From Alphaproteobacteria bacterium UBA828 (GTDB lineage Bacteria; Pseudomonadota; Alphaproteobacteria; UBA828): a stretch of 64,000 nt of DNA. Positions 10,812 through 50,050 of the stretch are shown one piece after another (position 1 is the stretch's first letter; the number at the start of each line of letters is the position of its first letter). The DNA is taken from positions 5,273 through 69,272 of the forward strand of contig DBHM01000013.1 of assembly GCA_002296185.1 (NCBI GenBank). Reading direction: 5' to 3'. The notes beneath the pieces were generated by a model. The model made no database searches and was not told the origin of the DNA. It was given only the letters and a program-made list of their open reading frames with translations. The translations under genes and the position numbers were made by a program.

Positions 10812-12734
10812 TTATTCTCCCGCGGCTAGGGCCTTATGAGCTTCTTTACGACCCTTAAGTCTTCTACGTCCGAGTTCATTTAACTCTGGCGCAGTTGGAG
10901 GTTCCCTTCCCGTCTCATCTTTACAACGAGCACGGATTTCCTCTATTTCACCACCGCGATCAAATAGGGGAACCTCAGCTCTTTCAGAACGTAGCTTATC
11001 TCTAAGAGAATTAGTTTCTTGTTCGTTAACTGATAAATCTGAATTTAAGACAACCCCGTACCTCTTAGCACCATCAAATGTTATAAGTCCACGGTCAACT
11101 TCGAGAGCTACAAGCGCTGGGTCACGTTCGAATGGATCGCCCCATCCACCTCCACCCCAAGTGCAGAAATGAAGTATATCGCCTTCTTCAACTTTAACAT
11201 GATCACATTTGGCCGGCATCAATTCAGTTGTACCGTCTACACGTTCAAGGATCTTTGTACTCCTAGCACCAGGCCCACCACCATTGACACCCCAAGGATA
11301 TGTAAGCCATCTATCATCATGGAGGGACATTTCGCCAGGTTCTAATGCTCTATATGAAATTTTTACACCGTTACCTCCTCTATGAAGGCCTGGGCCTCCT
11401 GAGTCTGGTATTGTCTCATACGTTTCAATACGTAGTGGGAAGTATGCTTCTAAAAACTCATTTGGAATATTAGTAAAAGATGGCCATAAAGAGTGACCAT
11501 CAGGACCATCACCAACTGGGCGACCCGGTATACCACCAAATCCAATTTGATAAAGCTGATACCACTCTCCTTTTTTATCATAACCAGAATAAAAGAAGTG
11601 AGGACTATCTGAGAAACCTGCAGCTACCATAAAATCTGGGGCACGTTGCCCAAGTAACCCGCCCAAGACATCAAATGTTCTAGCCAACGCATGTGTGCGA
11701 GACGATAAAGCAGCTGGCTTTAATGGTTTCAACATACATCCGGGTGGTATTCTGACATCAATATATCTATAGAAACCGTCATTAAACATAATTTGGGGAT
11801 CAAATATATTAATCATATAAACACCAACAAACATTTTGAACATTTCCTCATTTAAAAGGAAATTTATAGAGCTAGATGATTGTGGATCAGTACCTTCAAA
11901 ATCAAAGATTAACTTGTCTCCTTCTCGCCACATTGTACAAGCCATAGTGTATGGACCACTACCTACTCCATCGTCACATATGTAGTCTTCAAAGTAGACT
12001 TTTTCATCCTCACCAACTGTTTCTCTAATTAGCTTGAGCATAGCTTTTCTATTTCTATCGAGAAGATGCTCGTATGCAGCCATTACTGTATCAACGCCAA
12101 AACGATCACAAAGCTCTACCACCCTTTTCTCTGCTAGACGAACACCTGCTACCAATGCGAAGAAATCACTTTTATTCCAGTGAGGCATCCTACACTGATG
12201 CAGAATTACTTTAAGAACATCTTCTTGCAATTCATCGTTCTGATAGATCTTAACAACAGGTATGACCACACCCTCTTCATAGATTTGATGAGCATCTGTA
12301 GGAAGGCTACCTGGTGTTTTACCTCCAACGTCAGTCATATGACCAAACATAGAGGCATAACCAACGTGGCGACCCTCGTAAAATATCGGTCTAAGAACCA
12401 ACCAATCATTTGCATGGCTGATTGCTCCGGCACAGCTATATGGATCTGAAGTTAAAAATAGATCTCCTTCTTCAATAGTACCATCGTAATGTCTCTTAAA
12501 GCCGTGCATAAATGAACCAAACTGACCAACTACCATGTCACCTTCAGGGTCGGCGATCATTGGGAATTCATCGTGCTGTTCTCTTATACCTGGAGACATT
12601 GCAGTTCTATATAAAACCGCGTCCATCTCATACCGGGCATTTTTAAGAGCACTCTCAATTATATCTAGTGTAATTGGATCAAGATCCACTTTTTCAAATG
12701 GAGTCTCATCTGACTGAATTATTGTTGCTGGCAT
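10812..12734 (-). CDS. Hydantoinase B/oxoprolinase family protein (HyuB-like, set 1)
   Basis: 640 aa. DPITLDIIESAL at the N-terminus and C-terminal WGGGGWGDPFERDP. It lies 15 nt downstream of HyuA set 1 with an AGGAAGGA RBS. Confidence 0.9.
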   Translation of the reverse strand: MPATIIQSDETPFEKVDLDPITLDIIESALKNARYEMDAVLYRTAMSPGIREQHDEFPMIADPEGDMVVGQFGSFMHGFKRHYDGTIEEGDLFLTSDPYSCAGAISHANDWLVLRPIFYEGRHVGYASMFGHMTDVGGKTPGSLPTDAHQIYEEGVVIPVVKIYQNDELQEDVLKVILHQCRMPHWNKSDFFALVAGVRLAEKRVVELCDRFGVDTVMAAYEHLLDRNRKAMLKLIRETVGEDEKVYFEDYICDDGVGSGPYTMACTMWREGDKLIFDFEGTDPQSSSSINFLLNEEMFKMFVGVYMINIFDPQIMFNDGFYRYIDVRIPPGCMLKPLKPAALSSRTHALARTFDVLGGLLGQRAPDFMVAAGFSDSPHFFYSGYDKKGEWYQLYQIGFGGIPGRPVGDGPDGHSLWPSFTNIPNEFLEAYFPLRIETYETIPDSGGPGLHRGGNGVKISYRALEPGEMSLHDDRWLTYPWGVNGGGPGARSTKILERVDGTTELMPAKCDHVKVEEGDILHFCTWGGGGWGDPFERDPALVALEVDRGLITFDGAKRYGVVLNSDLSVNEQETNSLRDKLRSERAEVPLFDRGGEIEEIRARCKDETGREPPTAPELNELGRRRLKGRKEAHKALAAGE

Positions 12735-12749
12735 AGCGTCATTCCTTCC

Positions 12750-14804
12750 TTATGCACCGGTCGGCCGGATGATGATATTTCCAAATTTATCTACCTTACC
12801 GACATGGTCTGGCAGAATTACTGTAGTTGAATCCATCTCAGTAACAACTGCAGGTCCAGTTATACAGTTTCCTGCCTTTAATTTTGAACGATCATATAAA
12901 CTTGCTTCTTGATCTTTTCCATCGACAAAGACTGTGCTTTTCTTAACTAAGGCCTCTGATGGATCATCGTTACCAACATCTAGAGTTCCTGCTTCAACTA
13001 CAGTTTCAGGGCCCTGCACTATTGCTCTGATGGTAACAATCTCGTGTTCTACCTCTAGAGCAAATGTAAACAGCTGAGTGTGTTCTTCGTCAAATCTTTT
13101 AGCAAGATCTGCAAGACCACCTGAATTGAATTCTTCTTCTGAATATACAATTGGCAGGACAAGTCCTTGACCATGATACCTTAGATCTATTTCATATTGA
13201 ACTGTTTGCTCGGATTCAGATATTCCTGCATCTGCTATTGCTACTCGTGCAGACGAAGCTAGTTCATTCATAACATTCTTAACTTCATTATCATCAGTTT
13301 CAGAATATTTACGGACTAAGCTTCGAGCTGTTTCATTAGTTAGCCTTGTTGTTGCATCACCATAAGCACACAAAACTCCAGGAGAAGGTGGAATGATAAC
13401 AGGCCAAGAACTCATTAACTTTCCAAGTGCATTACCATGTAATGGACCCGCACCACCGAAAGCTATAAGAGCGAAGTCTCGGGGATCAAATCCTTGCTCG
13501 ACAGAGACAAGTCGAAGAGCACCAAACATATTCTCATTTACTATATCTATAATTCCAGCTGCAGCTTCTTTAAGCCCCAGGTCAAGACCATCTGCGATAG
13601 ACTGAACAGAACTTTGAGCAGCATTTACATCCATTTTCATATCCCCACCAACTAATTCATCGGGGAGAAAGCCTAAAACAACATTAGCGTCTGTCACAGT
13701 TGGCTGGTCACCACCTTTGCCATAAGCAGCAGGACCAGGATCTGCACCTGCGCTTTGGGGGCCAACCCTAAGGGCTTTTGTCAATTCTGGCACATGAGCA
13801 ATGGAACCTCCACCAGCACCAACCGTTCGTACGTCGAGAGAGGAGGCACGGACAGTTACGTCGCCTACTGTAGTTTCACGTCTTCGACGAGCTACACCAT
13901 CCTGAATAAGCGCAACATCAGTTGAAGTTCCACCCATATCTAGAGTGAGTAAATTTTCAAATCCTGCGTTCCTTGCAACCCACAGAGCACCAGAAACACC
14001 TCCTGCCGGTCCACTCATAAGAACATTGACAGGGGATGATTGAGCAGCTTCTACAGATGCTAACCCACCGTCTGAACGCAAGATGTGAAGATCCGCTTTG
14101 ATTCCTCTTTTATTTAACTCTGAATCGAGATTAGACATGTATAGAGAAACCTTAGGGGAAATATATGAATTGGCTACAGTTGTAACTGCTCTTTCATACT
14201 CATACATTTCAGGAAGAACTTCAGATGAGATTGAAACAGGAACATTAGGTAGTAATTCCGCAGCAATCTCCCTAACTCTTTCTTCTGTTTTACCACTAAC
14301 GTAAGCATTCATTAAACTTACTGTAAGGGCCTCAATTCCTCTTTCTTTTAAATATTGAATCTTTTCTTTAAGGTCTGCCTCATCTAAAGGCCTGACCACT
14401 TCACCATTAGCACTCATACGTTCTTTTGCTTCAACCGTAAGCTCCAAAGGCGCTAAAGGTTCAGGTTTTGGCCATATAATCCATCCAGCTAAGAGACCAG
14501 GAACAAAAGACCTAGCTATTTGCAACACCTGACGATAACCTTCAGTTGTCACTAAACCAACATTTGCACCCTTTCCTTCTAGGACAGTATTGGTAGCAAC
14601 AGTTGTACCATGCATCACATGTGTTATTGTACTTGGATCAACTCCAGCATCTTTACAAACTCTTTCTATTCCATTTAATACACCAATCGATGAATCAGCA
14701 GGCGTTGACGGCACCTTTGCACGATACGTCTTGCCTGACCCTTCATCTATCAATAAAAGATCTGTAAACGTGCCTCCCACGTCTACACCCAAACGATAAG
14801 CCAT
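12750..14804 (-). CDS. Hydantoinase A/oxoprolinase family protein (HyuA-like, set 1)
   Basis: 684 aa. N-terminal GVDVGGTFTDLLL, internal LDMGGTSTDV and GAGGGSIA blocks of the ASKHA-type hydantoinase A family. Confidence 0.9.
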   Translation of the reverse strand: MAYRLGVDVGGTFTDLLLIDEGSGKTYRAKVPSTPADSSIGVLNGIERVCKDAGVDPSTITHVMHGTTVATNTVLEGKGANVGLVTTEGYRQVLQIARSFVPGLLAGWIIWPKPEPLAPLELTVEAKERMSANGEVVRPLDEADLKEKIQYLKERGIEALTVSLMNAYVSGKTEERVREIAAELLPNVPVSISSEVLPEMYEYERAVTTVANSYISPKVSLYMSNLDSELNKRGIKADLHILRSDGGLASVEAAQSSPVNVLMSGPAGGVSGALWVARNAGFENLLTLDMGGTSTDVALIQDGVARRRRETTVGDVTVRASSLDVRTVGAGGGSIAHVPELTKALRVGPQSAGADPGPAAYGKGGDQPTVTDANVVLGFLPDELVGGDMKMDVNAAQSSVQSIADGLDLGLKEAAAGIIDIVNENMFGALRLVSVEQGFDPRDFALIAFGGAGPLHGNALGKLMSSWPVIIPPSPGVLCAYGDATTRLTNETARSLVRKYSETDDNEVKNVMNELASSARVAIADAGISESEQTVQYEIDLRYHGQGLVLPIVYSEEEFNSGGLADLAKRFDEEHTQLFTFALEVEHEIVTIRAIVQGPETVVEAGTLDVGNDDPSEALVKKSTVFVDGKDQEASLYDRSKLKAGNCITGPAVVTEMDSTTVILPDHVGKVDKFGNIIIRPTGA

Positions 14805-14914: not shown

Positions 14915-15760
14915 TTAGCTCTCCTTAATACCTATACTTGCACCTGAACGTCGCTTCTGGATAATAAATAGAGATAAAAAGCTTATCCCAATTACTAACA
15001 GTGAAAAAATTGTAGTCATAGTTCCAATCGCATACAGCGCTGGTGTGGATGCGGTGCCCGTAACAGACACTAGCTCTAAAGGAAGAGTATTATATTCTCC
15101 AGAAACTTGAGATGTCCGTGCATACTCATCGTAACTTAATGTAAAACCAAAGAGTGCAACGCCAACAAGACCAGGCAAAGTTATAGGAATAATAACTGAT
15201 TTTAATGTTTGCCAAGTCGTGGCGCCCAAATCGCGTGCAGCCTCCTCAGTTCTAGGGTCAAACCTACTAAATATTGCGAGCATTATGAGCACCCCGAATG
15301 GTAATGTCCAAGTTAAATGCGCGCCTAATGCTCCCGACCACCATGCACTTTGCATTTCTAGGCTAGTGAACATACGACCTATTCCGAGAGAGATTAAGAT
15401 GGATGGAGCAATTAAACTTGCAACTACAAGATAGAAAAAAAATGTATTTCCCCGAAATCCTTTACGAAAGGCAAGACCAGCAAGAAATGATATAGTCATA
15501 GTTAAAAACATTATTATTAATGCTAAAATAACTGACCGTCCCCAAGGCCAGCGAAAATCACCAATATAACTCGGGTTAAAAACATCAGCAAACCAGTGTA
15601 CTGATGCACCTCGCATAGGAAAAGTTAGCCCCCCTGTCTCACCTTGAAACGAGAGTACACCCATTACAGCTATAGGGCCGTATAAAAATAGTAAAAATGC
15701 ATAAAAAATAACCGTTCTAAAGTAGAACCAATTACTTCTTTTCATACGACCGACACTCAT
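14915..15760 (-). CDS. ABC transporter permease (PotC/PotI-like)
   Basis: 281 aa, multi-TM. EAARDLGATTWQTLKSVIIP is the EAA loop of binding-protein-dependent permeases. 4-nt overlap with the upstream permease. Confidence 0.85.
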   Translation of the reverse strand: MSVGRMKRSNWFYFRTVIFYAFLLFLYGPIAVMGVLSFQGETGGLTFPMRGASVHWFADVFNPSYIGDFRWPWGRSVILALIIMFLTMTISFLAGLAFRKGFRGNTFFFYLVVASLIAPSILISLGIGRMFTSLEMQSAWWSGALGAHLTWTLPFGVLIMLAIFSRFDPRTEEAARDLGATTWQTLKSVIIPITLPGLVGVALFGFTLSYDEYARTSQVSGEYNTLPLELVSVTGTASTPALYAIGTMTTIFSLLVIGISFLSLFIIQKRRSGASIGIKES

Positions 15761-16623
15761 AACTGTTTCCTAACATCAACTAAGCGCATAATACCACCTA
15801 CAATTAATAATAGCACTATGAGTAAAAAGAGTGAGTTTGCTGATGAATACGCAAAGTTGTAACTACCAATTTGGTTCGAAATTGATAGAGCTACTGTACC
15901 TACATTTGCTCCGGACAGGAGTCTTACAGCCGTAAAGTCTGAAAGAGTTAAACTCAATACGAAGATTGTACCTATTGCAATACCTGGTTTACATAGCGGA
16001 ATTATGACATGTAACAAAATTTGCCAACCTTTAGCACCATTATCGCGAGCTGCCTCAATTAACGCCGGGTCAATTCTAGCCATAGTATTGAATAAAGGAG
16101 CTACCATAAATAGAGTGAAAACGTGAACATATGACAGTATCACTGCAAATTCAGAAAAGAGTAAAAACTCCAGTGGCTCGTCTGTAATACCAATGGACAT
16201 AAGGACACGGTTAATTACACCCTCTTTACCAAGAAAAGGTATCCAGGCAATCATTCGGATAACACCAGAAGTCCAAAATGGAACAACACACAAAAGAAAT
16301 AGCAGCATCTTTGCTTTAAGTGATAGGACATCAAATACTAGGTAATAAGCGATTATAAAACCAAGAACTGTTGTAGTTATCCATACTATAGCCGCTATAC
16401 GTATAGTTTCTAAGTAATTATCTAGAGTTAAACCTGATGTAAAAAGCTTAACATAATTACGCACTGTAAAATCTGGTATTGTTAGAAAACCATTAAATTT
16501 CCAAAAGCTTGTTATTAAAATCACTATTATTGGCCCAATAAGAAAAAGCAGTAGAGCAATTCCTAAAGGTGTCATTTGTAAAGCAGTACTATAACGCTGT
16601 ATTTTTTCAAATAAGTGGGCCAT
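15757..16623 (-). CDS. ABC transporter permease (PotB/PotH-like)
   Basis: EAARDNGAKGWQILLHVIIP EAA loop. The listed start at 16635 is TTG, so I prefer the ATG at 16623 (MAHLFEK...). Confidence 0.85.
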   Translation of the reverse strand: MAHLFEKIQRYSTALQMTPLGIALLLFLIGPIIVILITSFWKFNGFLTIPDFTVRNYVKLFTSGLTLDNYLETIRIAAIVWITTTVLGFIIAYYLVFDVLSLKAKMLLFLLCVVPFWTSGVIRMIAWIPFLGKEGVINRVLMSIGITDEPLEFLLFSEFAVILSYVHVFTLFMVAPLFNTMARIDPALIEAARDNGAKGWQILLHVIIPLCKPGIAIGTIFVLSLTLSDFTAVRLLSGANVGTVALSISNQIGSYNFAYSSANSLFLLIVLLLIVGGIMRLVDVRKQL

Positions 16624-16670
16624 TAATAATCTCAAGCATATTATTTTTAATAATATTTATTTAAACGCGA

Positions 16671-16696
16671 ATGTGCGGGGCCTAAACCCCGCACAT
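16671..16696 (-). promoter_or_regulatory. GC-rich intra-operon hairpin between binding-protein and permease genes
   Basis: ATGTGCGGGG-CCTAAA-CCCCGCACAT is a perfect 10-bp stem. It lies between the SBP stop (16715) and the permease start. Confidence 0.5.
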
Positions 16697-16714
16697 AACG
16701 TTTAGTTACTTTTT

Positions 16715-18013
16715 TTAAGAAGCTACAAATTCATTCCACTTCTCTGTAAGGTATTCATTCTCTGCCATAACAGAATTCCAAACAGCTACACGACCCATTC
16801 TGTTCTTGTAGCTTCCTCCGTCACGAATGGCTCCAGCTTTTTCTAAAAGATTGCCAAATGGATCTCTTATTTCTGTAGCCGCAGCTTTACCTTCATACCA
16901 GAAATCCCATTCCTCTGGGGAAAGTTCTTTCTTTGTATTTTCTGGTGTAACTACATAATAACCCTGTTTGGCGAAGAAAGCGCCTGCAGGACCAGATAGA
17001 TACCAATTTAAGTAATCGTAGGTAGCATCTAATTTTTTACCTTCAACGTGCTTTGGAATCATTAGTGCCAATGACCAAGATCTATATCCTTCTTTAAGAT
17101 CCTGATAAACACAAGGAATACCTTTAGCTCGCACTGCAGTAACAGCAGGAGACCACATTGACTGTATTACAACTTCACCAGATAACATTAAGTTAACTGA
17201 TTCATTAAACGTAGTCCAAAGAGCACGGAAATGTCCCTTCTTCTTCCATTCAATCAATTGCTTAAATGTTGCATCAATCTCTGCCTTGGTCATATTCCCT
17301 TTATCGGCATAAGACACTAAACCGAGAGCCTCAAGCGCCATAGCAGCATCCATGCCACCAATTGCAGGGAAACCAACTAATGCAGTTTTTCCATTGAACT
17401 CATCATTCAATAACTCACCCCATGATGAAATAGGACGACCAATTTCGTCGGGCCTAATACCCAATGTATCAGCGTTGTGCAATATTGGCATTGCAGCTAC
17501 TTGGTCAGTTGATCCAGGTGCTTTAAAATCAGAACCAGCACCATCAACATACATAACACTATTTGGTCGTTGACCATCACCAAGCCACGCATCGTCCCAA
17601 CCTTTTCCGGATTCTTTATAAATCCCAGAAACCTTGTCCCACTCAGAAAGACGATTAACGTCTACTGGCTGGAAATTACCTGTAGGCCAAACAAATTTAA
17701 ACTGCATATAAGCTGGCTCAAGCAAATCAAATGACTTTGGTTGGGTGATTCCTCTATTACCAACAGTACCAAGGTCCACAGCTGTTTGCTCAACTGTAAA
17801 ACCTAAAGCGTCAGTAGCCATTTTAGCAAAAGGGTCCATGTTAGAAACAGCTAGACCTAACTGCCGTATTGTTATGTCTTTGAGATCTTGCGCCCAAACA
17901 GTTGGAAAACCTCCAAGTGTAGCAGCCGCACCAACTCCAGCAGCGGCAGCTGTTCCCTTAAGAACAGTTCTACGACTTACTGAATTAGTTTTTTTTCTTT
18001 TTGAAACACTCAT
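16715..18013 (-). CDS. ABC transporter periplasmic substrate-binding protein (PotD/PotF-like) with Tat-type signal peptide
   Basis: Start moved to the ATG at 18013, behind AGGTGAGGAG. N-terminus MSVSKRKKTNSVSRRTVLKGTAAAAGVGAAATLGGFPTVWA-QD carries the twin-arginine motif SRRxVLK. Confidence 0.85.
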   Translation of the reverse strand: MSVSKRKKTNSVSRRTVLKGTAAAAGVGAAATLGGFPTVWAQDLKDITIRQLGLAVSNMDPFAKMATDALGFTVEQTAVDLGTVGNRGITQPKSFDLLEPAYMQFKFVWPTGNFQPVDVNRLSEWDKVSGIYKESGKGWDDAWLGDGQRPNSVMYVDGAGSDFKAPGSTDQVAAMPILHNADTLGIRPDEIGRPISSWGELLNDEFNGKTALVGFPAIGGMDAAMALEALGLVSYADKGNMTKAEIDATFKQLIEWKKKGHFRALWTTFNESVNLMLSGEVVIQSMWSPAVTAVRAKGIPCVYQDLKEGYRSWSLALMIPKHVEGKKLDATYDYLNWYLSGPAGAFFAKQGYYVVTPENTKKELSPEEWDFWYEGKAAATEIRDPFGNLLEKAGAIRDGGSYKNRMGRVAVWNSVMAENEYLTEKWNEFVAS

Positions 18014-18140
18014 ATTTAATCTCCTCACCTATCTATTAAGTCTTGTTGTCATGTTAAACAAACTAAATTGATAATCGAATAACAACTGAGCTAGCTCAGC
18101 ATCCTTAATGCAATAAAAATGCAGTAATCAATAAATTAAT

Positions 18141-39979: not shown

Positions 39980-39986
39980 TGTTACC

Positions 39987-42139: not shown

Positions 42140-43306
42140 TTAGATCAATACGCTTCTAAGAAGTAAAATCAAGTCCTTCTTACCTTCAAATCCAATACCT
42201 GGGTTATCGTGTAGATAAATACCCTCTGGACTTAATGAATATCCATCAAAAAAACCACCAAAAGGTTCAAAAACCCCTGGATATGCTTCATTACCTCCCA
42301 ATCCAAGACCTGCAGCAATATTTAAAGCCATCAAATGACCACCATGTGGAATACACGATCTTCGAGACCAGGCATGTTTTTCAAGCATTTTAATAGTTCG
42401 CATAAATTCAACAAGCCCATAACTGAGTGCTGGATCAAACTGAAGAATATCTGTTTCGCTTCTTAATCCACCATAAAGTATCAAATTTTTTGAATCTTGA
42501 GATGAAAACAAATTTTCACCAGTGGCGATTGGTCCTTTATAATTATCAGCAATAATATGACTCAACTCATAATCTAATGGATCTCCAGGTTCTTCATACC
42601 AACGTAATTTATACGGCGAGATCATGTTACCAAAGTCTAGAGCCTGCTGAGTATTAAACCTTCCATTTGCATCTACAGCAAGATTACTAGGATCAGCAAC
42701 AATTTTTAACACAGCCTCTATTCTTTTTTTATCATGATTAATATCTGCTCCACCTACTTTAATTTTAACTACTTCAAAACCTTGATCTAAATAACTACGA
42801 ACTTCATCCCGCAAAAGATCCAAATCCTTTTCAGGCTGATAATAACCACCTGCAGCGTATACGAAAACTTTTTCATCATATTTACCTGAGTTAAAATTAT
42901 CGGATAGATATTTCCATAATGGTATATTAGCTATTTTAGCAACAGCATCCCAGATCGCCATATCGAGAGTTCCAACGCCAACTGCTCGCTCACCATGACC
43001 ACCTGGCTTTTCATTTACCATCATAGCATTCCAGAGTTTAAAGGGGTCTAAATTATCACCCATTACATTAGATTGCTCTTTTTCTGATAAGTTCATTATA
43101 CGGGGTATCAAACGCTCACGCATCAAAGCCCCCTGACCATATCGTCCATTAGAATTAAAGCCGAATCCTACAACCTGCTCTCCATCGATAAATTGGTCAG
43201 TAATAATAGCAACCACACTTGCTGTCATTTGTGAAAAATCTATATATGCATTCCTTATAGAACTCTGTAATGACACTGTTTTTTCTTTTATATCAAGGAT
43301 CTTCAT
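42140..43306 (-). CDS. Enolase-superfamily enzyme (mandelate racemase/muconate-lactonizing enzyme family, MR-type KxK)
   Basis: 388 aa. FEVVKIKVGG (KxK), AVDANGRF, WYEEP and ATGENLF metal/acid-base blocks. Substrate cannot be read from the sequence. Confidence 0.8.
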   Translation of the reverse strand: MKILDIKEKTVSLQSSIRNAYIDFSQMTASVVAIITDQFIDGEQVVGFGFNSNGRYGQGALMRERLIPRIMNLSEKEQSNVMGDNLDPFKLWNAMMVNEKPGGHGERAVGVGTLDMAIWDAVAKIANIPLWKYLSDNFNSGKYDEKVFVYAAGGYYQPEKDLDLLRDEVRSYLDQGFEVVKIKVGGADINHDKKRIEAVLKIVADPSNLAVDANGRFNTQQALDFGNMISPYKLRWYEEPGDPLDYELSHIIADNYKGPIATGENLFSSQDSKNLILYGGLRSETDILQFDPALSYGLVEFMRTIKMLEKHAWSRRSCIPHGGHLMALNIAAGLGLGGNEAYPGVFEPFGGFFDGYSLSPEGIYLHDNPGIGFEGKKDLILLLRSVLI

Positions 43307-43475
43307 TCTATAAATTCCAATTGTTTTATTAAATTATAAACTATGGCTTGTTTGTTAAAAGTTTTTCCTGTGTAGTTATGCTAACATCACTAAGTAAATT
43401 ATAAATAAATTAAAGTTATAGATTTTAATTTATTATACTTTATCAGATGTATGATCTGTTTAAATAATAGTATGA

Positions 43476-45680
43476 ATGGCAAAAAAACTAAGGATTATTA
43501 AATTGGTAAAATTAACCGCTATAAACACCGACACCCCTTGGCATAGAGTAGAATCTGAAGAGAGTGATTGGAAAGAAGTTGACCATAAGCTTTTAACACA
43601 AATGTTGGAGCAACTTTTTATTATTAGATCCTTTGAAGAAAAATCCCTAGATCTATTTAAGGCTGGATGCATTCATGGGCCCGCTCACGCTAGCATAGGC
43701 CAGGAAGGTGGTGCCATAGCAGCTATGTCAGTCTTAAATTCAAAAGATAAAATTAATGCAACACATAGGGCTCACCATCAATTTTTATCTAAATTCTTGT
43801 TTCACAAATCACCAGTAAATTATGACCCAAGAGAGAGTAATCTTCCAGAAGAACTAGATGATGTTATATATCGTTCTCTCTCTGAAATTATGGGACTAAA
43901 GGATGGATACTGTGGCGGGCGCGGAGGATCCATGCATATGAGGTGGGATGAAGCTGGTGTACTTGGTACAAATGCTATTGTTGGAGGAAATCCCCCACAA
44001 GCCGTGGGCTATGCATTAGCAGAAAAATTGCGAAATAGTAACCAATTAACAGTTACCTTTTTTGGTGATGGGTCAATGCAAAATGGTGCGGCATACGAAG
44101 CACTTAACCTTGGTGCCCTTTATGATCTACCAATAATCTTTTTCAATGAAAACAATCTATATGGTGTCTCTACTCATGTCTCTGAAACTACAAGAGAAAC
44201 AAGGCTAACCGCAAGAGGGCTAGGTCTTGGTATACCATCACTTGAAGTTGATGGTATGGACATTATAGCTGTAAGGAAAGCTATGTTATGGGCTAAAGAC
44301 TATATTGCTAAAAATAAGGGGCCAGTCCTTATTGAATCTCAAACTTACAGATATTTTCATCAACATGGTCCAATGCGTGGTAGCGCATTTGGCTATAGAA
44401 ATAAATCTGAAGAAGAAAAATGGGTTAAAAAAGACCCTTTCGTTACTTTTCCAAAAAAGTTAATAGATCTTAAAATAATTACTTCAGATTCAGTAGAAGA
44501 AATTAAATCTAGATCATTCAATACTGTAAAAAATGCTGCTTCTCGTCTCACTGAAACATCTCCAGACGGAAGTAACCAACTGCAAGTTAGGTCAGAAATG
44601 TGGCCACAAGTAGATACAGTCGAACATGGTATTAAGGGTGACCTCTCCGAACTTGGGAATCAGAGGTTTATAGAAATTGAAGATATAGATCCAAAAAATA
44701 CAAAGGAAATGAAGTTCATTGAAGCTATAGCTGCTGTACAGCTTCGAGCAATGGAACGAGATGAGCGTGTTTTTATAATGGGAGAAGATGTGCAACATTT
44801 AAAAGGGGGAACTGTTGGTGCTACAAAAGGTATTCTAGAACGCTTTCCTGAACGTCTCATAGGAACACCAATTGCAGAAAATGGATTCTGCGGAATGGGC
44901 CTTGGAGCTGCTGTCAACGGAATGAAGCCAATTGTTGAAATAATGTATTCAGATTTTATTTTAGTTGCCGCTGATCAACTGTTCAACCAAATAGGTAAAG
45001 TGAGGCATATGTTTGGTGGCAACCATTCAACCCCACTTATTTTACGAACAAGGGCAGCTGGTGGAGGTGGTTATGGATCCCAACATTCTATGGATCCAAG
45101 TGGAATATTTGCCGCATACCCTGGCTGGAGAGTTATCGCACCCTCGAATGCGTTTGACTATATTGGCCTGTTTAACTCAGCAATATTATGTGACGATCCA
45201 GTTGCAATAATAGAATGCCAATCATTATATCAAGATATATCAAATGTTCCCGAAGGTGACCTTGATTATTGCATACCTTTTGGTAAAGCTAAAATAGTAA
45301 GCTCAGGTCGTGAATGCACGATAATATCATGTGCAAATATGGTTGCTAGTTCTATTAAAGCTGCAGCTGAACTAGATATTGATGCGGATATAATTGACCT
45401 CAGAACCGTTGATACATTAAGTCTAGACTGGGAAACCATTGGAACTAGTATAAAGAAAACAAACAAAGTTATGGTTGTTGAACAAACTGCTCGTGGACAT
45501 GGACTAGGGGCTCGTATAGTTCAAGAAATTCAAGAAAGATTCTTTGATTGGCTTGATCATGAAGTTATTAGAATAAGTGGCACACATAGCGCTCCAGTAG
45601 TATCAAAACCACTAGAGGCGGCAGCACTAGCTGGTATGGATGATATAAAACAAGGAATATTATCGCTTTGTAAAAATTAA
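43476..45680 (+). CDS. Fused E1 alpha-beta thiamine-diphosphate-dependent 2-oxoacid dehydrogenase/acetoin-cleaving-type component
   Basis: 734 aa. The N-half carries IIRSFEEKSLDLFKAGCIHGPAHASIGQEG and FFGDGSMQNGAAYEALN (TPP motif GDG...N). The C-half carries the transketolase-like pyrimidine-binding and C-terminal domains (MGEDV..., TPIAENGF...). Confidence 0.8.
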   Translation: MAKKLRIIKLVKLTAINTDTPWHRVESEESDWKEVDHKLLTQMLEQLFIIRSFEEKSLDLFKAGCIHGPAHASIGQEGGAIAAMSVLNSKDKINATHRAHHQFLSKFLFHKSPVNYDPRESNLPEELDDVIYRSLSEIMGLKDGYCGGRGGSMHMRWDEAGVLGTNAIVGGNPPQAVGYALAEKLRNSNQLTVTFFGDGSMQNGAAYEALNLGALYDLPIIFFNENNLYGVSTHVSETTRETRLTARGLGLGIPSLEVDGMDIIAVRKAMLWAKDYIAKNKGPVLIESQTYRYFHQHGPMRGSAFGYRNKSEEEKWVKKDPFVTFPKKLIDLKIITSDSVEEIKSRSFNTVKNAASRLTETSPDGSNQLQVRSEMWPQVDTVEHGIKGDLSELGNQRFIEIEDIDPKNTKEMKFIEAIAAVQLRAMERDERVFIMGEDVQHLKGGTVGATKGILERFPERLIGTPIAENGFCGMGLGAAVNGMKPIVEIMYSDFILVAADQLFNQIGKVRHMFGGNHSTPLILRTRAAGGGGYGSQHSMDPSGIFAAYPGWRVIAPSNAFDYIGLFNSAILCDDPVAIIECQSLYQDISNVPEGDLDYCIPFGKAKIVSSGRECTIISCANMVASSIKAAAELDIDADIIDLRTVDTLSLDWETIGTSIKKTNKVMVVEQTARGHGLGARIVQEIQERFFDWLDHEVIRISGTHSAPVVSKPLEAAALAGMDDIKQGILSLCKN

Positions 45681-45715
45681 TTTATAATTAGGTTAATCAT
45701 TTAAAGGAGTAAATC

Positions 45716-46177
45716 ATGTCAAAAAATAAAGGTATTCTAGATGATCTAATTATAAAATCTCATCATACCGCCGTAAGTGTTAAGGATTTTGATTCTGCCC
45801 TTAAGTTCTATATAGAAATGCTTGGATTCGAGAGTATAGGCGAAATAAGAGATCGCTGTGAACCAGGTTTTGCAGAAGCAACTGGCGTACCAAATGGAAA
45901 AGCTCACTGGGCGATGCTAAAAAATGATAACTATCACATAGAACTATTCCAGTGGGTTAATCCTATAGGTGAACTAGCTGCAAATCGACAATGCGACCTT
46001 GGATATACGCATATAGCCCTACAAGTAAAGAATATTGATGCTGCTTATGAAAAGGTTATTGCTTCAGGATTTAAAACACTAAGTCCACCATTAACTCTTA
46101 GGGGCGGAGCTGCTAAAGCAATTTATATTCAAGCGCCAGAAGACAACATAACAGAGTTAGTTGAATATCGGGATTAA
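45716..46177 (+). CDS. VOC (glyoxalase/bleomycin-resistance/dioxygenase) family protein, methylmalonyl-CoA epimerase-like size
   Basis: 153 aa. HHTAVSVKDFDSALKFYIEMLGF...HIALQVKNID. AAGGAG RBS. Confidence 0.75.
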   Translation: MSKNKGILDDLIIKSHHTAVSVKDFDSALKFYIEMLGFESIGEIRDRCEPGFAEATGVPNGKAHWAMLKNDNYHIELFQWVNPIGELAANRQCDLGYTHIALQVKNIDAAYEKVIASGFKTLSPPLTLRGGAAKAIYIQAPEDNITELVEYRD

Positions 46178-46293
46178 TAATAAAAAATTCTGGCACTATT
46201 TTGTAAAAGTTCAAACCTTATTAATTAAATATATAAAAATGTTTGGTTATAAGCAGCTGAATAACTTTGATAAAAATAAGATGTGAACATTAA

Positions 46294-48330
46294 TTATGAT
46301 ATATGGAGATATCCAAGAGAGTCTACATTCAGTATTTGTTTGGGGTGAATAATTGTTGTTGCCGATTTCTCCTCTACCAGCAAAGGCCCTTCCATGGTAA
46401 AACCTGGATTTAAACACTCCCTATCAAGCACATGGCATTCATGTACACCATCCTCACCAAAAGAAACCTTTCTTTTTCCCTTAAAAGATTGGCTTTCATC
46501 AAATCCACCCTTTATTGAGTTTGATGAAGGGCGTGGAACAGGAGCAGTTGCAATTAAATGATAATTTACAATTTCTATAAGAGTAGATTTTAGACTGAAA
46601 GTGAAAGCTCTCTCATGCGCAATATGAAAATTCTTTTTAATAGAATCTAAAGAATCTCTGCTGTAATCAACTGAAATACCAACCCAGTGTTCTTGTCCTT
46701 GATATCTAAGATCAATAGATGTTTCAAATTTAACATCACCAATATTTATATCTTTATCATCTGAAAAATAATCTTTTGCTGAGTCTTCAAGATCAGAAAA
46801 AATTTCCTTGATTTCATTAACGCTTATATTATCTATTTGGCGTAAGCGAGTAAGAACAAAATCTTTTCTTGGTTCCGTTGCAAGCATGCCCCATGCTGAG
46901 AAATAGCCAGGATACCTTGGAACAATTATTTCTTTAACCCCAAGTTCCCTACCAAGTGTTGCTGCATGCATTGCTCCACCACCACCACCAACTACTAAAA
47001 CAAAATCTCGTGGGTCATGACCTCTCTGTATAGAGACTAGTTTTAGGGCATTAATCATATCCGCATCTGCAAGTCTAATGATTGATTCTGCCGCCGATAG
47101 AATATCGACACCTAAACCTTTTGCAATTTTATTCATCGCTTGTTCAGCTTTATTCAGGTCTAACTTTATACGACCTCCAGCAAAATAGTTTGGATCAAGG
47201 ACACCCGCAATCAACTTAGCATCCGTTACAGTAGGTTCTATACCTCCCATCCCATAGCATGCAGGGCCTGGATCAGCTCCTGCGCTTAAAGGTCCCACCT
47301 TAAGTGAACCAACCTTATCGAACCATGCAATAGAACCTCCACCTGTTCCTATTTCAACAATATCTACAACAGGTATTTTTACTGGATAACCTGGATTCAG
47401 TCGTGACCATTCAAGCTTGTAATCTGTTGTTACGGTTACCTTGCCCCCTTGAATAACTGAACATTTGGCAGTTGTGCCGCCAATATCTAAATATATTACA
47501 TTGCTTTCTTCGCACAGTTTTCCGACAAGAGCTGCGCCGTTTACCCCTGCTGATGGACCAGATTCCACAAGAGTGATTGGATGAGAACGAGCCCACTCAA
47601 AACTCGTTGAACCACCATTAGATTGCATGGCATGCATCGGACAATTAAAGCCTTTGCTATTCAAGGAAGTTTCTAAAGCATTAAAATAGTCTTGCACAAT
47701 TGGCTGAACATACGCATTAAGTACAGCTGTATTAGCTCTTTCATATTCCCTCCACTCCCTTGTGATTTCATGGCTTGCAGTGACAGCAACATCTGGTAAA
47801 TGCTCAATAATATATTTAGAGCATTGCTCTTCATGATATGGAGAAGAATAACTATGAAGGAATACTATTGCTATTGCTTCAATTTTTTCTTGTTTACATT
47901 GAGATATAACCAAATCTAGGTCAGACATACAGAGAGGCTCTATAATTTTTCCGTTTGAATCTATCCGTTCACTTACCTCAAATCTTAATTTACGAGGAAC
48001 AAAAGGTGTTGGCTTTCTAAAACGAAGATTATAGAGGTCCGGCCTATTTCCTCTAGCAATTTCCAGTATATCTCGAAAGCCCTTAGTTGTGACAAGTGCT
48101 GTCTTTACACCCTTCCTTTCAGTAATTGCATTAATAACTGTTGTACCGCCATGAACAAAGAATGTGATAGACTGAGGGGTAATTCCAGCAAGATTGATTG
48201 CATCTTTAACACCATCAGTTAAATCTTTTGGTGTAGTAAGTGATTTTTCAGTAATTAGCTCTCCTGAAATTTCATCAAAAGCCACTACGTCTGTAAAAGT
48301 ACCACCAATATCAGCTGCCATGCGGCCCAT
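46294..48330 (-). CDS. Hydantoinase A/oxoprolinase family protein (HyuA-like, set 4)
   Basis: 678 aa. MAADIGGTFTDVVAF, LDIGGTTAKCS and GTGGGSIAWF. It lies 1 nt downstream of HyuB set 4. Confidence 0.9.
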   Translation of the reverse strand: MGRMAADIGGTFTDVVAFDEISGELITEKSLTTPKDLTDGVKDAINLAGITPQSITFFVHGGTTVINAITERKGVKTALVTTKGFRDILEIARGNRPDLYNLRFRKPTPFVPRKLRFEVSERIDSNGKIIEPLCMSDLDLVISQCKQEKIEAIAIVFLHSYSSPYHEEQCSKYIIEHLPDVAVTASHEITREWREYERANTAVLNAYVQPIVQDYFNALETSLNSKGFNCPMHAMQSNGGSTSFEWARSHPITLVESGPSAGVNGAALVGKLCEESNVIYLDIGGTTAKCSVIQGGKVTVTTDYKLEWSRLNPGYPVKIPVVDIVEIGTGGGSIAWFDKVGSLKVGPLSAGADPGPACYGMGGIEPTVTDAKLIAGVLDPNYFAGGRIKLDLNKAEQAMNKIAKGLGVDILSAAESIIRLADADMINALKLVSIQRGHDPRDFVLVVGGGGGAMHAATLGRELGVKEIIVPRYPGYFSAWGMLATEPRKDFVLTRLRQIDNISVNEIKEIFSDLEDSAKDYFSDDKDINIGDVKFETSIDLRYQGQEHWVGISVDYSRDSLDSIKKNFHIAHERAFTFSLKSTLIEIVNYHLIATAPVPRPSSNSIKGGFDESQSFKGKRKVSFGEDGVHECHVLDRECLNPGFTMEGPLLVEEKSATTIIHPKQILNVDSLGYLHIS

Positions 48331-48331
48331 A

Positions 48332-50050
48332 TTATTGACCCTCTCGTAAACGTGTAGTTTCTATATCGTCCACTTTTCCATTTTCATCTATTACAACTCC
48401 AAAATCTGATTTAGCAACCTCATTTGAGATATATCCATTAAGGAAATCTTCATGGACTAGACTTATAGGTCTTTCTAGAGGTGAACCAAAACCACCGCCA
48501 CCACCAGTAACAACTCTTAATTTATCACCTTTACTTAATTCTTGATGAGAGATTCTTGAAACTCTTTTTAGTATTCCACTCCTTATAATCTCCATATAAT
48601 TATTAGTACCCTCTTTTCCCCCCTTGAGTCCCCAAGGTTTTTCTATACTACGTCCAAAGCTACAATATGTATGAGCATCGTTTATTAATATTTCAAATTC
48701 ACGTATCGCCCCAAAGCCACCACGCCAATACCCGGCACCCACACCATCATTAACGTTAAGAGAATATTCAGTTATTCTTAAAGGAAATTTTGCCTCAAAA
48801 AGCTCAACAGAATAATTATATGTATCCCCATCAGTTGTAGCAATAAGAGCACCCGTGCCATCACTGTCTGATTGGGCGCCCCAACCTCCGACTGCTGGTT
48901 CAATGTGGACAAACATTTCATCTGTATCGGGGTCTTTCCCAAAAATATACGCTGCACAAAGGCTCATATAACTACCTGCGCTTAATTGATCTGGAGCAAG
49001 TTCTGCAAGAGCTCTCCATACCAACTCTGATGCTTGTGCAGAGCCTTCATAATACCATCCTGTTGGAGCAGGTTTTTTTGCAGTAAAAATTGTACCTTCT
49101 GGGCAAATTATAGTTATTGGCCTAAACCATCCTTCATTTGAGGGACCTTGAGGGTCCACAAGAGCTTTAAAAACTGTCTTGACTGCTGCGCTTAATGCCC
49201 CAAATGCACAATTTATTGGACCATTACGTTGAGGGCTTGAGCCAGTAAAATCGAAGGCTATCTCATCACCTTTAATCCTAACCTCAACACAAACAGGAAA
49301 CTGATCATTAGACACACCGTCCCCATCAATAAAATCTTTGGCACTATAAATTCCATCAGGAAGATCACGTATTGCTTGACGTGACAATTTATCACTTGAT
49401 TCAAGTATATAATTGAATGTCTTTCGGACCGTTTCCTTACCATACTTAGTAAATATCTCAGTAACACGAGTCTCAGCAATACGTACAGCTGCTAGTTCTG
49501 CATTAAAATCACCTATACACATAGTAGGTAAACGAGTATTTTCTCTAATTAATTCTATTATATCTGGTTGAACTTCGTCATTCCTGCAAACACGGATACC
49601 CGGAAAACGAATACCTTCTTGATATATTTCTGTGGCACTCGGAGAAATACTACCAGCTACAGCACCACCTACTTCACTCCAGTGAGCAACTGCAATTGCA
49701 AAGCTTTCTAGTTTACTATCAATAAAAATTGGTTTTATAAGTGCAATATCACAAGTATGAGTGCCCCCATCAAACGGATCATTGGTCATAAATACATCTC
49801 CAGGGCTTATATCATCCCCAAACCGACGTATTATACTCTGCACCTGTAAAGCAAAAGTGCCTGTAAAAAGTGTAATTCCATTTGTCTGGACAATTAATTG
49901 TCCTTTTGGATCACATACTCCACATGCAAAATCTAAAACTTCATAGATAACGGGACTCATAGAGCAACGAGAAATTACGATACCCATTTCATCAGCAGTT
50001 GCTAAAAGCTTACCTCTAATAATTTCCTGTGTTATTGAGTCTGCAATCAA
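48332..50050 (-). CDS. Hydantoinase B/oxoprolinase family protein (HyuB-like, set 4)
   Basis: 572 aa. TTG start. ITQEIIRGKL N-terminus. The C-terminal motif is the variant TGGGGGFGSPLERP. Confidence 0.9.
   Translation of the reverse strand: MIADSITQEIIRGKLLATADEMGIVISRCSMSPVIYEVLDFACGVCDPKGQLIVQTNGITLFTGTFALQVQSIIRRFGDDISPGDVFMTNDPFDGGTHTCDIALIKPIFIDSKLESFAIAVAHWSEVGGAVAGSISPSATEIYQEGIRFPGIRVCRNDEVQPDIIELIRENTRLPTMCIGDFNAELAAVRIAETRVTEIFTKYGKETVRKTFNYILESSDKLSRQAIRDLPDGIYSAKDFIDGDGVSNDQFPVCVEVRIKGDEIAFDFTGSSPQRNGPINCAFGALSAAVKTVFKALVDPQGPSNEGWFRPITIICPEGTIFTAKKPAPTGWYYEGSAQASELVWRALAELAPDQLSAGSYMSLCAAYIFGKDPDTDEMFVHIEPAVGGWGAQSDSDGTGALIATTDGDTYNYSVELFEAKFPLRITEYSLNVNDGVGAGYWRGGFGAIREFEILINDAHTYCSFGRSIEKPWGLKGGKEGTNNYMEIIRSGILKRVSRISHQELSKGDKLRVVTGGGGGFGSPLERPISLVHEDFLNGYISNEVAKSDFGVVIDENGKVDDIETTRLREGQ

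Follow-up and report, generated by a model that had tools for sequence, protein, structure and literature searches.

A 64-kb stretch of DNA from an uncultured marine alphaproteobacterium (here called the window) contains four sets of HyuA/HyuB genes. At a probability of roughly 60%, we favor the view that they encode four independent, anciently diverged ATP-dependent enzymes, each belonging to a widespread clade of its own and to its own catabolic operon, with sets 1 to 3, in our preferred reading, acting as ring openers. The HyuA/HyuB (hydantoinase/oxoprolinase) family is large and well known, with diverse specificities; none of the four lineages described here includes a characterized enzyme.

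Integrity of the Hyu genes and a third subunit in set 3

All eight Hyu reading frames were confirmed on the minus strand at the coordinates listed in a preliminary description of this DNA (Table 1). A tblastn search of the window with the eight proteins returned exactly four A and four B loci and no extra Hyu fragments. The proteins are full-length. The A subunits (HyuA, ASKHA ATPase) each combine the Pfam domains Hydant_A_N, Hydantoinase_A and Hydant_A_C, with E-values of 4.5e-80 to 2.5e-93 for Hydantoinase_A, and the B subunits (HyuB, metal subunit) match Hydantoinase_B across the full 519-position model (1.8e-115 to 4.2e-162). The signatures reported previously, D[VTI]GGT[FC]TD in every A subunit, GGGG[WY]GDP in B1-B3 and GGGGGFGSP in B4, were found again (DVGGTFTD in A1, DTGGTFTD in A2, DVGGTCTD in A3 and DIGGTFTD in A4; GGGGWGDP in B1, GGGGYGDP in B2 and B3). 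Mapping onto the residues listed in PMC8453981 indicated that the ASKHA ATP-binding motifs are intact in all four A subunits (in A1, the phosphate-1, phosphate-2 and GxxPGP motifs) and the Asp-His-Asp-His metal tetrad in all four B subunits. The four sets are probably active.

Gene order is likewise as previously described, A preceding B in sets 1-3 and B preceding A in set 4, where a single base separates the two genes. The assignment of each pair to a different operon also stands: opposite-strand genes part the sets and the neighbors differ from one set to the next (operon membership was called from strand and spacing only). The term "pair" does not fit set 3, where the preliminary description missed a 90-aa open reading frame, gamma3, that adds a Zn-ribbon subunit. 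Gamma3 scores 29.5 bits against Pfam family PF08882 (gathering score 21), and its PDB matches are confined to the gamma subunit of acetone carboxylase and the small subunit of acetophenone carboxylase. Its reading frame shares one base with the B3 stop codon, and it is predicted to be translationally coupled to B3. Matches occur in 107 representative clusters; the orthologues keep four Cys and, in one case (P0109), are fused to HyuB. For B3 itself, orthologue clusters at 70-80% identity number more than 100.

Table 1. Hyu genes and neighboring features in the window (assignments from Pfam).
Feature	Coordinates	Strand	Length (aa)	Remarks
Isochorismatase	3036-3668	-		
Family III CoA-transferase	3811-5010	+		
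HMGL-like lyase	5021-5935	+		
B1, HyuB-type metal subunit	10812-12734	-	640	Hydantoinase_B, E 2.2e-145; C-terminal tail of ~60 aa
A1, HyuA-type ASKHA ATPase subunit	12750-14804	-	684	Hydant_A_N/Hydantoinase_A/Hydant_A_C
ABC importer	14915-19265	-		Upstream of A1/B1, same strand
Importer permeases	15757-16635 and 14915-15760	-		
Importer binding protein	16715-18028	-		SBP_bac_8
Importer ATPase	18141-19265	-		
Isochorismatase-family cysteine amidohydrolase	26877-27500	+		Convergent with B2
Zn-ADH/quinone-reductase-like protein	27500-28528	+		Convergent with B2
B2, HyuB-type subunit	28541-30328	-	595	
A2, HyuA-type subunit	30349-32418	-	689	
SDR	36424-37173	+	249	Convergent with set 3 operon
Isochorismatase-family cysteine hydrolase	37196-37876	-		Last gene of set 3 operon
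Gamma3, Zn-ribbon small subunit	37884-38156	-	90	PF08882, Acetone_carb_G
B3, HyuB-type subunit	38156-39979	-	607	
A3, HyuA-type subunit	39987-42107	-	706	
Enolase-superfamily protein	42140-43306	-		MR_MLE; upstream of A3, same strand
A4, HyuA-type subunit	46294-48330	-	678	
B4, HyuB-type subunit	48332-50050	-	572	E 4.2e-162; upstream of A4
SDR	50125-50844	-		Upstream of B4, same strand
Luciferase-like flavin monooxygenase	50876-51979	-		Upstream of B4, same strand

Gene neighborhoods and the proposed reaction

The earlier statement that the four substrates cannot be read from the sequence holds for the proteins themselves, but hints come from conserved neighbors, namely an ABC importer, isochorismatase-family amidohydrolases, and a family III CoA-transferase accompanied by an HMGL-like lyase. 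The importer genes are separated from one another and from set 1 by gaps of -4 to 112 nt. This neighborhood is syntenic in loci L005-L024, where the importer arrangement is retained at 61-89% identity; it is missing at the loci of distant set 1 orthologues. Nearly all of the latter unite genes for a CoA-transferase III, HyuA, HyuB, an isochorismatase and an HMGL-like lyase, the isochorismatase gene being in most cases no more than 10 kb from the A1/B1 orthologues and, in actinomycete loci, directly after HyuB. The window carries a corresponding trio at 3036-5935. It is possible that these genes are relocated partners of set 1 and candidate orthologues of those at the distant loci, to which their identities are only 27-53%.

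In set 2, the amidohydrolase (Cys motif GCTTSGCV) finds as its top PDB match 3ot4/3uao (217 bits), which we take to be NicF maleamate amidohydrolase, and as its second N-carbamoylsarcosine amidohydrolase (149 bits). The same convergent isochorismatase and ADH pair adjoins A2/B2 orthologues in L090. In Cupriavidus, a beta-keto-acid cleavage enzyme and two SDRs are encoded next to the orthologues, as is a hexapeptide-repeat protein, perhaps a gamma carbonic anhydrase.

The set 3 isochorismatase gene (Cys motif TNVCC) begins 7 nt past gamma3. Alpha- and Betaproteobacteria share the order A-B-gamma-isochorismatase, and the isochorismatase directly follows gamma or a B-gamma fusion in L085, L086, L087 and L088; a CDA-fold deaminase comes after it in L087, and in L088 a beta-keto-acid cleavage enzyme is encoded ahead of the set 3 orthologue. 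The 249-aa SDR occupies the same convergent position in the betaproteobacterial loci L085 and L086. The MR_MLE gene, 32 nt from A3, is retained in L093 and L094, both close relatives, and missing from L085, L087 and L088, and is therefore lineage-specific.

Set 4 is preceded by the monooxygenase and SDR genes, with gaps of 31 and 74 nt between monooxygenase, SDR and B4. This arrangement is retained in L093 and L094, and in L091 a luciferase-like gene follows the B4-like gene. No amidohydrolase gene was found among the set 4 neighbors, a point against the favored view.

Isochorismatase-family amidohydrolases recur beside sets 2 and 3 and, for set 1, beside its distant orthologues, a pattern suggestive of a ring-opening step and a subsequent deamidation. 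By analogy with the structures of caprolactamase and the carboxylases, an unreactive carbonyl compound, in its enol or lactim form, would be phosphorylated or carboxylated by the A subunit at the expense of ATP and probably also of bicarbonate. A tunnel would lead the activated intermediate to B, whose metal site would resolve it. In our preferred reading, sets 1-3 would open a cyclic amide, imide or ureide ring and the neighboring cysteine amidohydrolase would then free ammonia, following the logic of N-methylhydantoinase and N-carbamoylsarcosine amidase. Genes for a CoA-transferase, lyase, hydratase and dehydrogenase activity fill the region, and their products would take over the carbon skeleton. 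The substrate of set 1 would be a compound brought in by the adjoining importer; set 4, together with the flavin monooxygenase and the SDR, would act on a different compound.

Less probable, but a real alternative, is that at least one set is an ATP- and bicarbonate-dependent ketone carboxylase of the acetone/acetophenone carboxylase type, with set 3 the likeliest candidate and sets 2 and 4 possible ones. A neighboring SDR would turn a secondary alcohol into a ketone, which the Hyu enzyme would carboxylate; the resulting beta-keto acid would be cleaved or activated by enzymes acting downstream. Set 3 shares with AcxABC (PDB 5M45, 5SVB) and acetophenone carboxylase (Apc; PDB 5L9W) a Zn-ribbon PF08882 gamma subunit, in the A-B-gamma order of acxABC. 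The top PDB match of A3 is the acetophenone carboxylase subunit ApcC (389 bits), and against the acetone carboxylase beta subunit AcxA it scores 322 bits, versus 192 for A4. Against the alpha subunit AcxB, B3 scores 126 bits and the other B subunits 41-67. Both set 3 and set 4 have SDR genes beside them, and the beta-keto-acid cleavage enzymes and hexapeptide-repeat protein at orthologous loci would suit this chemistry.

Several features of set 3 nonetheless depart from the carboxylases. The first metal ligand of B3 is an Asp, where AcxB has its Glu89 gate. B3 also lacks the insertions of AcxB (607 versus 776 aa; ApcD, 684 aa), and gamma3 spans only the C-terminal half of AcxC (90 versus 168 aa; Apc small subunit, 129 aa). 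Unlike Apc, set 3 has neither a second A-type paralogue nor an epsilon subunit. B3 scores about 180 bits against ApcD, CapB and N-methylhydantoinase alike, and its clade falls outside the carboxylases in the neighbor-joining tree. The most conserved partner of set 3, unlike those of Acx and Apc, is a cysteine amidohydrolase, with no obvious role after carboxylation. Finally, caprolactamase requires bicarbonate although it is a hydrolase (PMC8453981), and a link to bicarbonate is therefore no mark of a carboxylase. Two observations weigh against ring opening all the same: the gamma subunit is otherwise known only from acetone and acetophenone carboxylases, against which A3 and B3 score fairly high, and the contexts of the Cupriavidus set 2 orthologues and of L088 fit ketone carboxylation better than amide hydrolysis.

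Comparison with caprolactamase and N-methylhydantoinase

Like caprolactamase of Pseudomonas jessenii (CapA/CapB, PDB 6YRA), mentioned alongside a related lactamase of P. putida KT2440 (PMC8453981), the window enzymes have separate A and B subunits (about 690 and 580 aa in caprolactamase), with the same ASKHA motifs and the same metal tetrad. The B-then-A order of set 4 is that of the CapB-CapA coding sequence used as expression construct (PMC8453981). Caprolactamase is the top NCBIfam match for all eight Hyu proteins, with scores of 193-566 bits, the highest being that of A2 against CapA; the equivalog cut-off is 1000. Scores against the acetophenone carboxylase equivalogs are 89-408 bits (cut-offs 1250-1500). 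B2 finds its top PDB match in CapB (6yra_B, 172 bits) and its clade groups weakly with the CapB clade (59%). The neighboring genes differ from those of caprolactamase, and none of the four B subunits belongs to the CapB clade, into which only a second pair at an unrelated locus, L092, falls.

It is rather improbable that the sets are several copies of the N-methylhydantoinase of the creatinine pathway, as automatic annotation has it. Many orthologues are named "N-methylhydantoinase B" by JGI, these names being a KEGG-style transfer, not the outcome of experiment. The fused N-methylhydantoinase (1288 aa; PDB 7HK5/9H03), with A and B domains of the same families, is the top PDB match for A4 (380 bits, versus 360 for CapA), B4 (327 bits) and B1 (223 bits), resemblances no closer than those of distant paralogues. 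Its two domains form one polypeptide, while the window subunits are encoded separately, and in a profile alignment the PDB protein has Gln at the fourth metal ligand where all window B subunits have His. The B4 clade is merely sister to its B domain (71% bootstrap). The gene context partly resembles that of the creatinine pathway: hyuB adjoins the N-carbamoylsarcosine amidase gene cshA in the creatinine cluster of Corynebacterium glutamicum ATCC 14067 (PMC8864220), a pairing of ATP-dependent ring opener and isochorismatase-family amidohydrolase resembling that of sets 2 and 3 and of the distant set 1 orthologues, which also speaks for the ring-opening reading above, and the CDA-fold deaminase of L087 would fit as well. 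However, the amidohydrolases of the window are distant from the Arthrobacter N-carbamoylsarcosine amidase (47 bits for that of set 3, 107-149 bits for that of set 2), the creatinine pair has no counterpart of gamma3, and creatinine/cytosine deaminase, creatininase and sarcosine oxidase are absent near any set among the annotated window ORFs. The divergence among the four sets (below) also makes one common substrate unlikely.

Divergence and origin of the cluster

The A subunits share 31.8-35.5% and the B subunits 22.7-29.6% identity in all-versus-all BLASTP comparisons and are therefore not recent copies, bearing out the earlier impression, gained by eye, of paralogues only distantly alike. 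A neighbor-joining tree of the B subunits, with reference sequences copied by hand out of alignment output, places each of the four with its orthologues from other taxa in a separate clade (100% bootstrap). All four clades lie outside CapB, the fused N-methylhydantoinase B domain, ApcD and AcxB, and contain no characterized enzyme; the deep branches have bootstrap values of only 9-28%. Tree and NCBIfam scores thus agree that none of the sets is the orthologue of a characterized enzyme, nor do the four fall together in one characterized clade.

Relatives of the four sets occur in other phyla and classes at about 60-80% identity: those of set 1 at 60-65% in Actinomycetes (for A1, also in Rhodospirillaceae and Binataceae, with 73-81% in marine alphaproteobacterial MAGs), of set 2 at 62% in Cupriavidus (for B2, also in Caballeronia), of set 3 at 70-72% in Betaproteobacteria and of set 4 at 59% in a Burkholderiales MAG. 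Recent tandem or segmental duplication, or joint arrival on a mobile island, might be proposed from the occurrence of four family members within 40 kb and from the slightly higher GC content of the Hyu genes (0.38-0.43, against 0.33-0.37 around them), but recent duplication is refuted by the 23-36% identities and the proposal as a whole is hardly credible, given that each set resembles orthologues from other classes or phyla more closely than it does its window neighbors, that the annotated window ORFs showed no integrase, transposase or tRNA gene, and that synteny and chromosomal position in relatives (below) speak against it. The cluster is best read as an assembly of four old lineages, inherited within its marine clade and not born of local duplication. 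The segment from set 4 to set 3 is syntenic in the related marine MAG loci L093 and L094 at 71-79% protein identity. Relatives of the source organism likewise carry several Hyu sets and, in one with a 3.28-Mb chromosome, the orthologues of sets 1 and 2 lie more than 1 Mb apart.

Four divergent Hyu sets with intact active sites

Eight long ORFs on the minus strand, lying exactly where a preliminary description had placed them, encode four sets of HyuA-type (A, ATPase) and HyuB-type (B, metal) subunits. All eight proteins exceed the Pfam gathering thresholds. Hydant_A_N, Hydantoinase_A and Hydant_A_C are found in each of A1-A4 (Hydantoinase_A E-values 4.5e-80 to 2.5e-93), and B1-B4 match the full-length Hydantoinase_B model (1.8e-115 to 4.2e-162). 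The N-terminal DxGGTxTD and C-terminal GGGG[WY]GDP or GGGGGFGSP motifs ascribed to these proteins are present, and the genes run, as had been noted, A to B in sets 1-3 and B to A in set 4; 1 base lies between B4 and A4. Searching the window with all eight proteins (tblastn) returned four A and four B loci and nothing more; the window has neither additional or fragmentary Hyu genes nor a second gamma gene. ORFs, domains, motifs, identities (see below), loci and gene order thus show the original description to be correct; the occurrence of four sets is far outside chance expectation. For the two terminal ORFs of the window, no exact gene product is on record, probably because gene callers chose other start codons.

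Features of the window. Bit scores are from PDB searches.
Feature	Position	Strand	Remarks
Terminal ORF	62-781
Isochorismatase, family III CoA-transferase, HMGL-like lyase	3036-5935		6 kb from B1; same family trio as elsewhere beside A1/B1 orthologues
Genes around set 1	6702-8111, 9859-10743, 19556-24096		typical of C5-dicarboxylate or propionate-type metabolism
B1	10812-12734	-	nearest: B domain of fused 1288-aa N-methylhydantoinase, 223 bits
A1	12750-14804	-
Set 2 isochorismatase	26877-27500
B2	28541-30328	-	nearest: CapB, 172 bits
A2	30349-32418	-
gamma3	37884-38156	-	90-aa Zn-ribbon ORF, PF08882; first base is last base of B3 stop codon
B3	38156-39979	-	ApcD, CapB and N-methylhydantoinase about equal, about 180 bits each
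A3	39987-42107	-	best: ApcC, 389 bits; AcxA, 322 bits
Fused E1 dehydrogenase	43476-45680	+	734 aa
A4	46294-48330	-	AcxA (comparison value), 192 bits
B4	48332-50050	-	nearest: B domain of fused 1288-aa N-methylhydantoinase, 327 bits
MoxR-type AAA ATPase and VWA/CoxE-like protein	58712-60864	-
Terminal ORF	61708-62967

The ATP-site motifs defined for the A subunit in the caprolactamase paper (PMC8453981), namely phosphate 1 (DxGGTxTD), phosphate 2 (DxGGT) and adenosine (GxxPGP), all align in A1-A4. Metal-site columns of the B subunit were placed on CapB (caprolactamase) and AcxB (acetone carboxylase) by profile alignment to solved structures. They are invariant across B1-B4 (D40, H98, D101 and H123 in B4 numbering), and the register is confirmed by AcxB, in which Glu89, His150, Asp153 and His175 occupy the same columns. 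The first position is Asp, not Glu, in all four window proteins. The motif and metal-site check gave no sign of a pseudogene among A1-A4 or B1-B4. The same alignment shows Gln at the fourth ligand position of the fused 1288-aa N-methylhydantoinase (7hk5_A), unlike CapB, AcxB, ApcD (acetophenone carboxylase) and the four window B subunits, which all have His.

Pairwise BLASTP gave identities of 31.8-35.5% between A subunits and 22.7-29.6% between B subunits, in keeping with the early impression that the paralogues are only distantly alike. A neighbour-joining tree (100 bootstraps) was built from the four B subunits, their orthologues from other taxa and four references transcribed from alignment output. 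Each of B1-B4 falls in its own clade with 100% support. The N-methylhydantoinase domain and the B4 clade are sister groups (71%), and the B2 clade groups weakly with that of CapB (59%); B1 and B3 are unplaced, deep nodes having 9-28% bootstrap values. None of the characterised clades contains a window protein, nor do the four sets share one common clade. Identities and tree placement therefore exclude both a recent duplication of near-identical sets and their confinement to a single characterised group.

The gamma subunit of set 3 and relation to characterised enzymes

The sets had been described as four pairs, which holds for sets 1, 2 and 4; in set 3 a third subunit had been overlooked. The gamma3 ORF is translationally coupled to B3, and its product matches the Pfam family of acetone carboxylase gamma subunits, PF08882, with 29.5 bits (gathering score 21). 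Its PDB matches are all weak and comprise only acetone carboxylase gamma and the acetophenone carboxylase small subunit. An exhaustive search of 1.84 billion representatives identified 107 related clusters. Most contain proteins of 85-110 aa; in a few, the gamma part is the C-terminal end of a protein the size of HyuB (about 690 aa). P0109, with 701 aa, is such a fusion to HyuB. The gamma3 protein is one of a family of "mini-gammas" with lengths of about 85-110 aa. Its orthologues keep four Cys, a WK pair and an LLD(T/S)E motif, the Cys residues and WK being found also in AcxC. The position of the ORF, its PF08882 and PDB matches and these conserved residues make set 3 an A-B-gamma system. A search of the window revealed no gamma homologue in sets 1, 2 or 4.

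The nearest solved relative differs from set to set in PDB searches. Caprolactamase is the top NCBIfam model for all eight proteins (492-566 bits for A, 193-290 bits for B); these scores fall short of the 1000-bit cut-off of the CapA/CapB equivalogs (NF050156/NF050157), and none of the four B subunits lies in the CapB clade. Acetophenone carboxylase models score 89-408 bits, the best being A3 against ApcC (408) and B3 against ApcD (180), with cut-offs of 1250-1500 bits (NF042975/NF042960/NF042976). The Apc enzyme has two A-type paralogues (ApcA, ApcC) and an epsilon subunit, whereas each window set has one A-type gene; no set combines equivalog scores, a second A-type paralogue and an epsilon subunit. 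The composition of acetone carboxylase, A (beta), B (alpha) and gamma, is matched by set 3 alone, with A3, B3 and the 90-aa PF08882 protein. Against AcxB, B3 scores 126 bits, far above the 41-67 bits of B1, B2 and B4. AcxB is a protein of about 776 aa with Glu89 as gating/metal residue, whereas B3 has 607 aa and Asp in that column, which sets it apart from AcxB. Finally, A and B are separate genes in all four sets, unlike the fusions of about 1200-1300 aa that characterise eukaryote-type 5-oxoprolinase and fused N-methylhydantoinase.

Partner genes and probable chemistry

The orthologue groups to which the four sets belong are old and widespread, and each has its own partner genes. Isochorismatase-family amidohydrolases adjoin sets 2 and 3. 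Orthologues of A3/B3 form more than 100 clusters at 70-80% identity, and the order A-B-gamma-isochorismatase is kept in Betaproteobacteria and Alphaproteobacteria, one genome having B and gamma fused. A convergent gene for a 249-aa SDR beside this module is also kept in the Betaproteobacteria loci. The MR_MLE gene is not part of the set 3 core, being kept only in a close relative and absent from three orthologue loci (L085, L087, L088). The literature searched held nothing relevant on the A-B-gamma-isochorismatase module.

Set 2 has orthologues at up to 62% identity in Cupriavidus and Caballeronia. Its convergent isochorismatase and Zn-ADH pair is kept in a relative at 74% identity. Beside the Cupriavidus orthologues lie genes for a beta-keto-acid cleavage enzyme, a hexapeptide-repeat protein and two SDRs. 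The isochorismatase scores 217 bits against PDB 3ot4/3uao, which we take to be NicF maleamate amidohydrolase, and 149 bits against N-carbamoylsarcosine amidohydrolase. The PRA-CH (HisI-like) gene upstream of A2 was rejected as a partner, as it is not found beside the orthologues in L089 and L090.

Orthologues of A1/B1 with 57-68% identity occur in Actinomycetes, Rhodospirillaceae, Binataceae and "delta proteobacteria". Nearly all of these distant loci (L025-L084) contain a family III CoA-transferase, HyuA, HyuB, an isochorismatase-family hydrolase and an HMGL-like lyase (for example, L050 8805-15420 and L081 8076-18304), a module for which no paper was found in the literature searched. In Rhodococcus, a fused malonyl-CoA decarboxylase/AMP-ligase gene lies near downstream of such a module. 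In the lineage of the window itself (L005-L024), the A1/B1 pair comes after an ABC importer instead, with PrpB-like, acyl-CoA dehydrogenase, CoA-transferase, PrpD-like and MaoC genes in its surroundings. The metabolic genes around set 1 in the window include two MmgE/PrpD-family members, an acyl-CoA dehydrogenase, a CoA-transferase and a MaoC/mesaconyl-CoA hydratase-like gene; the PrpB-like lyase nearby scores 267 bits, under the 354-bit equivalog cut-off.

Set 4 orthologues have 59-79% identity, and its luciferase-like monooxygenase and SDR genes are kept in a close relative. In another locus (L091 8001-10771), a luciferase-like monooxygenase gene comes after a B4 orthologue (69% identity), and there is no HyuA within 8 kb. 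In an unrelated 6-Mb genome (L092 2006-14691), PxpB and PxpC immediately precede a B4-like/A4-like pair, which has PxpA nearby and is adjoined by a second, CapB-like Hyu pair. This locus thus unites ATP-dependent lactam-opening systems of two different kinds.

Intact ATP and metal sites, subunit composition and conserved neighbours are observed. By analogy with solved homologues, the A subunit would use ATP and bicarbonate to phosphorylate or carboxylate the substrate as its enol or lactim tautomer, and a tunnel of some 40 Å would lead the intermediate to the B metal site. In sets 1-3, a cyclic amide, imide or ureide ring would be opened, and the cysteine amidohydrolase partner would then deamidate the product. 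The recurrence of this partner in sets 1-3 parallels a documented arrangement in which hyuB adjoins the N-carbamoylsarcosine amidase gene of a creatinine cluster (PMC8864220), which favours ring opening followed by deamidation. An N-methylhydantoinase of the creatinine pathway would be expected alongside creatinine deaminase or creatininase, N-carbamoylsarcosine amidase and sarcosine oxidase; isochorismatase-family amidohydrolases do occur at sets 2 and 3, and no gene for a deaminase, creatininase or sarcosine oxidase was found within the 64-kb window. We put the probability that hydrolases dominate among the four sets at roughly 0.6.

Alternatively, at least one set might be a ketone carboxylase. 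The gamma subunit of set 3, the carboxylase-leaning scores of A3 and B3 and the presence, at some orthologue loci, of SDRs and beta-keto-acid cleavage enzymes nearby point in this direction; we regard it as possible but less likely. A further proposal, doubtful as a whole, has two parts. The cross-phylum set 1 module could encode a route, so far unrecognised, by which an N-heterocycle is turned into central CoA esters. Set 3 and its isochorismatase hydrolase would constitute an undescribed three-subunit branch of the superfamily, retained at 70-80% identity in both Alpha- and Betaproteobacteria. Its gamma would be a minimal Zn-ribbon subunit of 90 aa that some genomes join to HyuB, and the cysteine amidohydrolase would be its obligatory partner. 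Neither the known hydrolysis of lactams or hydantoins nor the known carboxylation of ketones would describe the reaction of this branch; one possibility is ATP/bicarbonate-driven activation of an amide or ureide, resolved by the amidohydrolase.

To our knowledge, few substrates have been assigned in this large superfamily (N-methylhydantoin, 5-substituted hydantoins, 5-oxoproline, capro-/valerolactam, acetone and acetophenone), and metagenome pipelines call almost all members "N-methylhydantoinase". The window is a clear example in which this catch-all name is very likely wrong for the majority of copies. The sets are new, uncharacterised members of a well-known superfamily, unsurprising to a specialist, and leave ideas on how the family works unchanged. 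The earlier interpretation is supported, with the gamma subunit as its one structural correction and with added context. Four mutually distant and, as judged from their sequences, apparently functional clades occur together in an abundant uncultured marine alphaproteobacterium, with differing partner genes. They provide four defined targets, one of them three-subunit, for screening N-containing rings or ketones of marine dissolved organic matter, and conserved partners (amidohydrolase, CoA-transferase and lyase, ABC binding protein) narrow such screens. For finding new substrates in marine bacteria, the sets are useful.

Genomic setting

A second Hyu pair is present in only 2 of 80 loci centred on A1 orthologues (about 4-22 kb each, with up to 10 kb of flank per side), indicating that tight clustering is not the rule. 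The clustering is inherited: the segment comprising monooxygenase, B4-A4, glyoxalase, E1 dehydrogenase and MR_MLE-A3-B3 is wholly syntenic in a MAG with 71-79% protein identity. On one 3.28-Mb chromosome of a relative (OZ244839.1), orthologues of set 1 and set 2 lie at 1.14 Mb and 2.3 Mb, respectively, and there is also an orthologue of B3, besides a further B2-like paralogue. As relatives carry several dispersed sets, multiplicity of the family is normal in these bacteria; the literature searched held nothing relevant on Hyu paralogue expansions in marine bacteria. The window is densely packed with catabolic genes, and several families recur in it: isochorismatases (three), amidases, PrpD-like proteins and CoA-transferases (two each), and SDRs and enoyl-CoA hydratases (several). 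Scans of 36000-52500 gave fewer promoter-like sites than shuffled sequences and terminator-like sites slightly above them, and counts so near or below shuffles do not define operons.

Contigs from Tara Oceans and from other marine metagenomes, up to 367 kb long, contain exact copies of A1. The closest relatives in genome collections, at 73-81% identity, are uncultured marine Alphaproteobacteria and "Rhodospirillales" MAGs. GC content is 0.33-0.43.

Two further loci deserve mention. Pairs of MoxR-type ATPases and VWA/CoxE-like proteins usually act as metalloenzyme maturation factors; for the pair in the window, no obvious client gene was identified there. Between sets 3 and 4 lies a gene for a thiamine-dependent E1 dehydrogenase whose alpha and beta parts form one polypeptide, with no E2/E3 gene nearby. 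A glyoxalase-family gene comes next, and both genes are kept between sets 3 and 4 in two close relatives (L093, L094).
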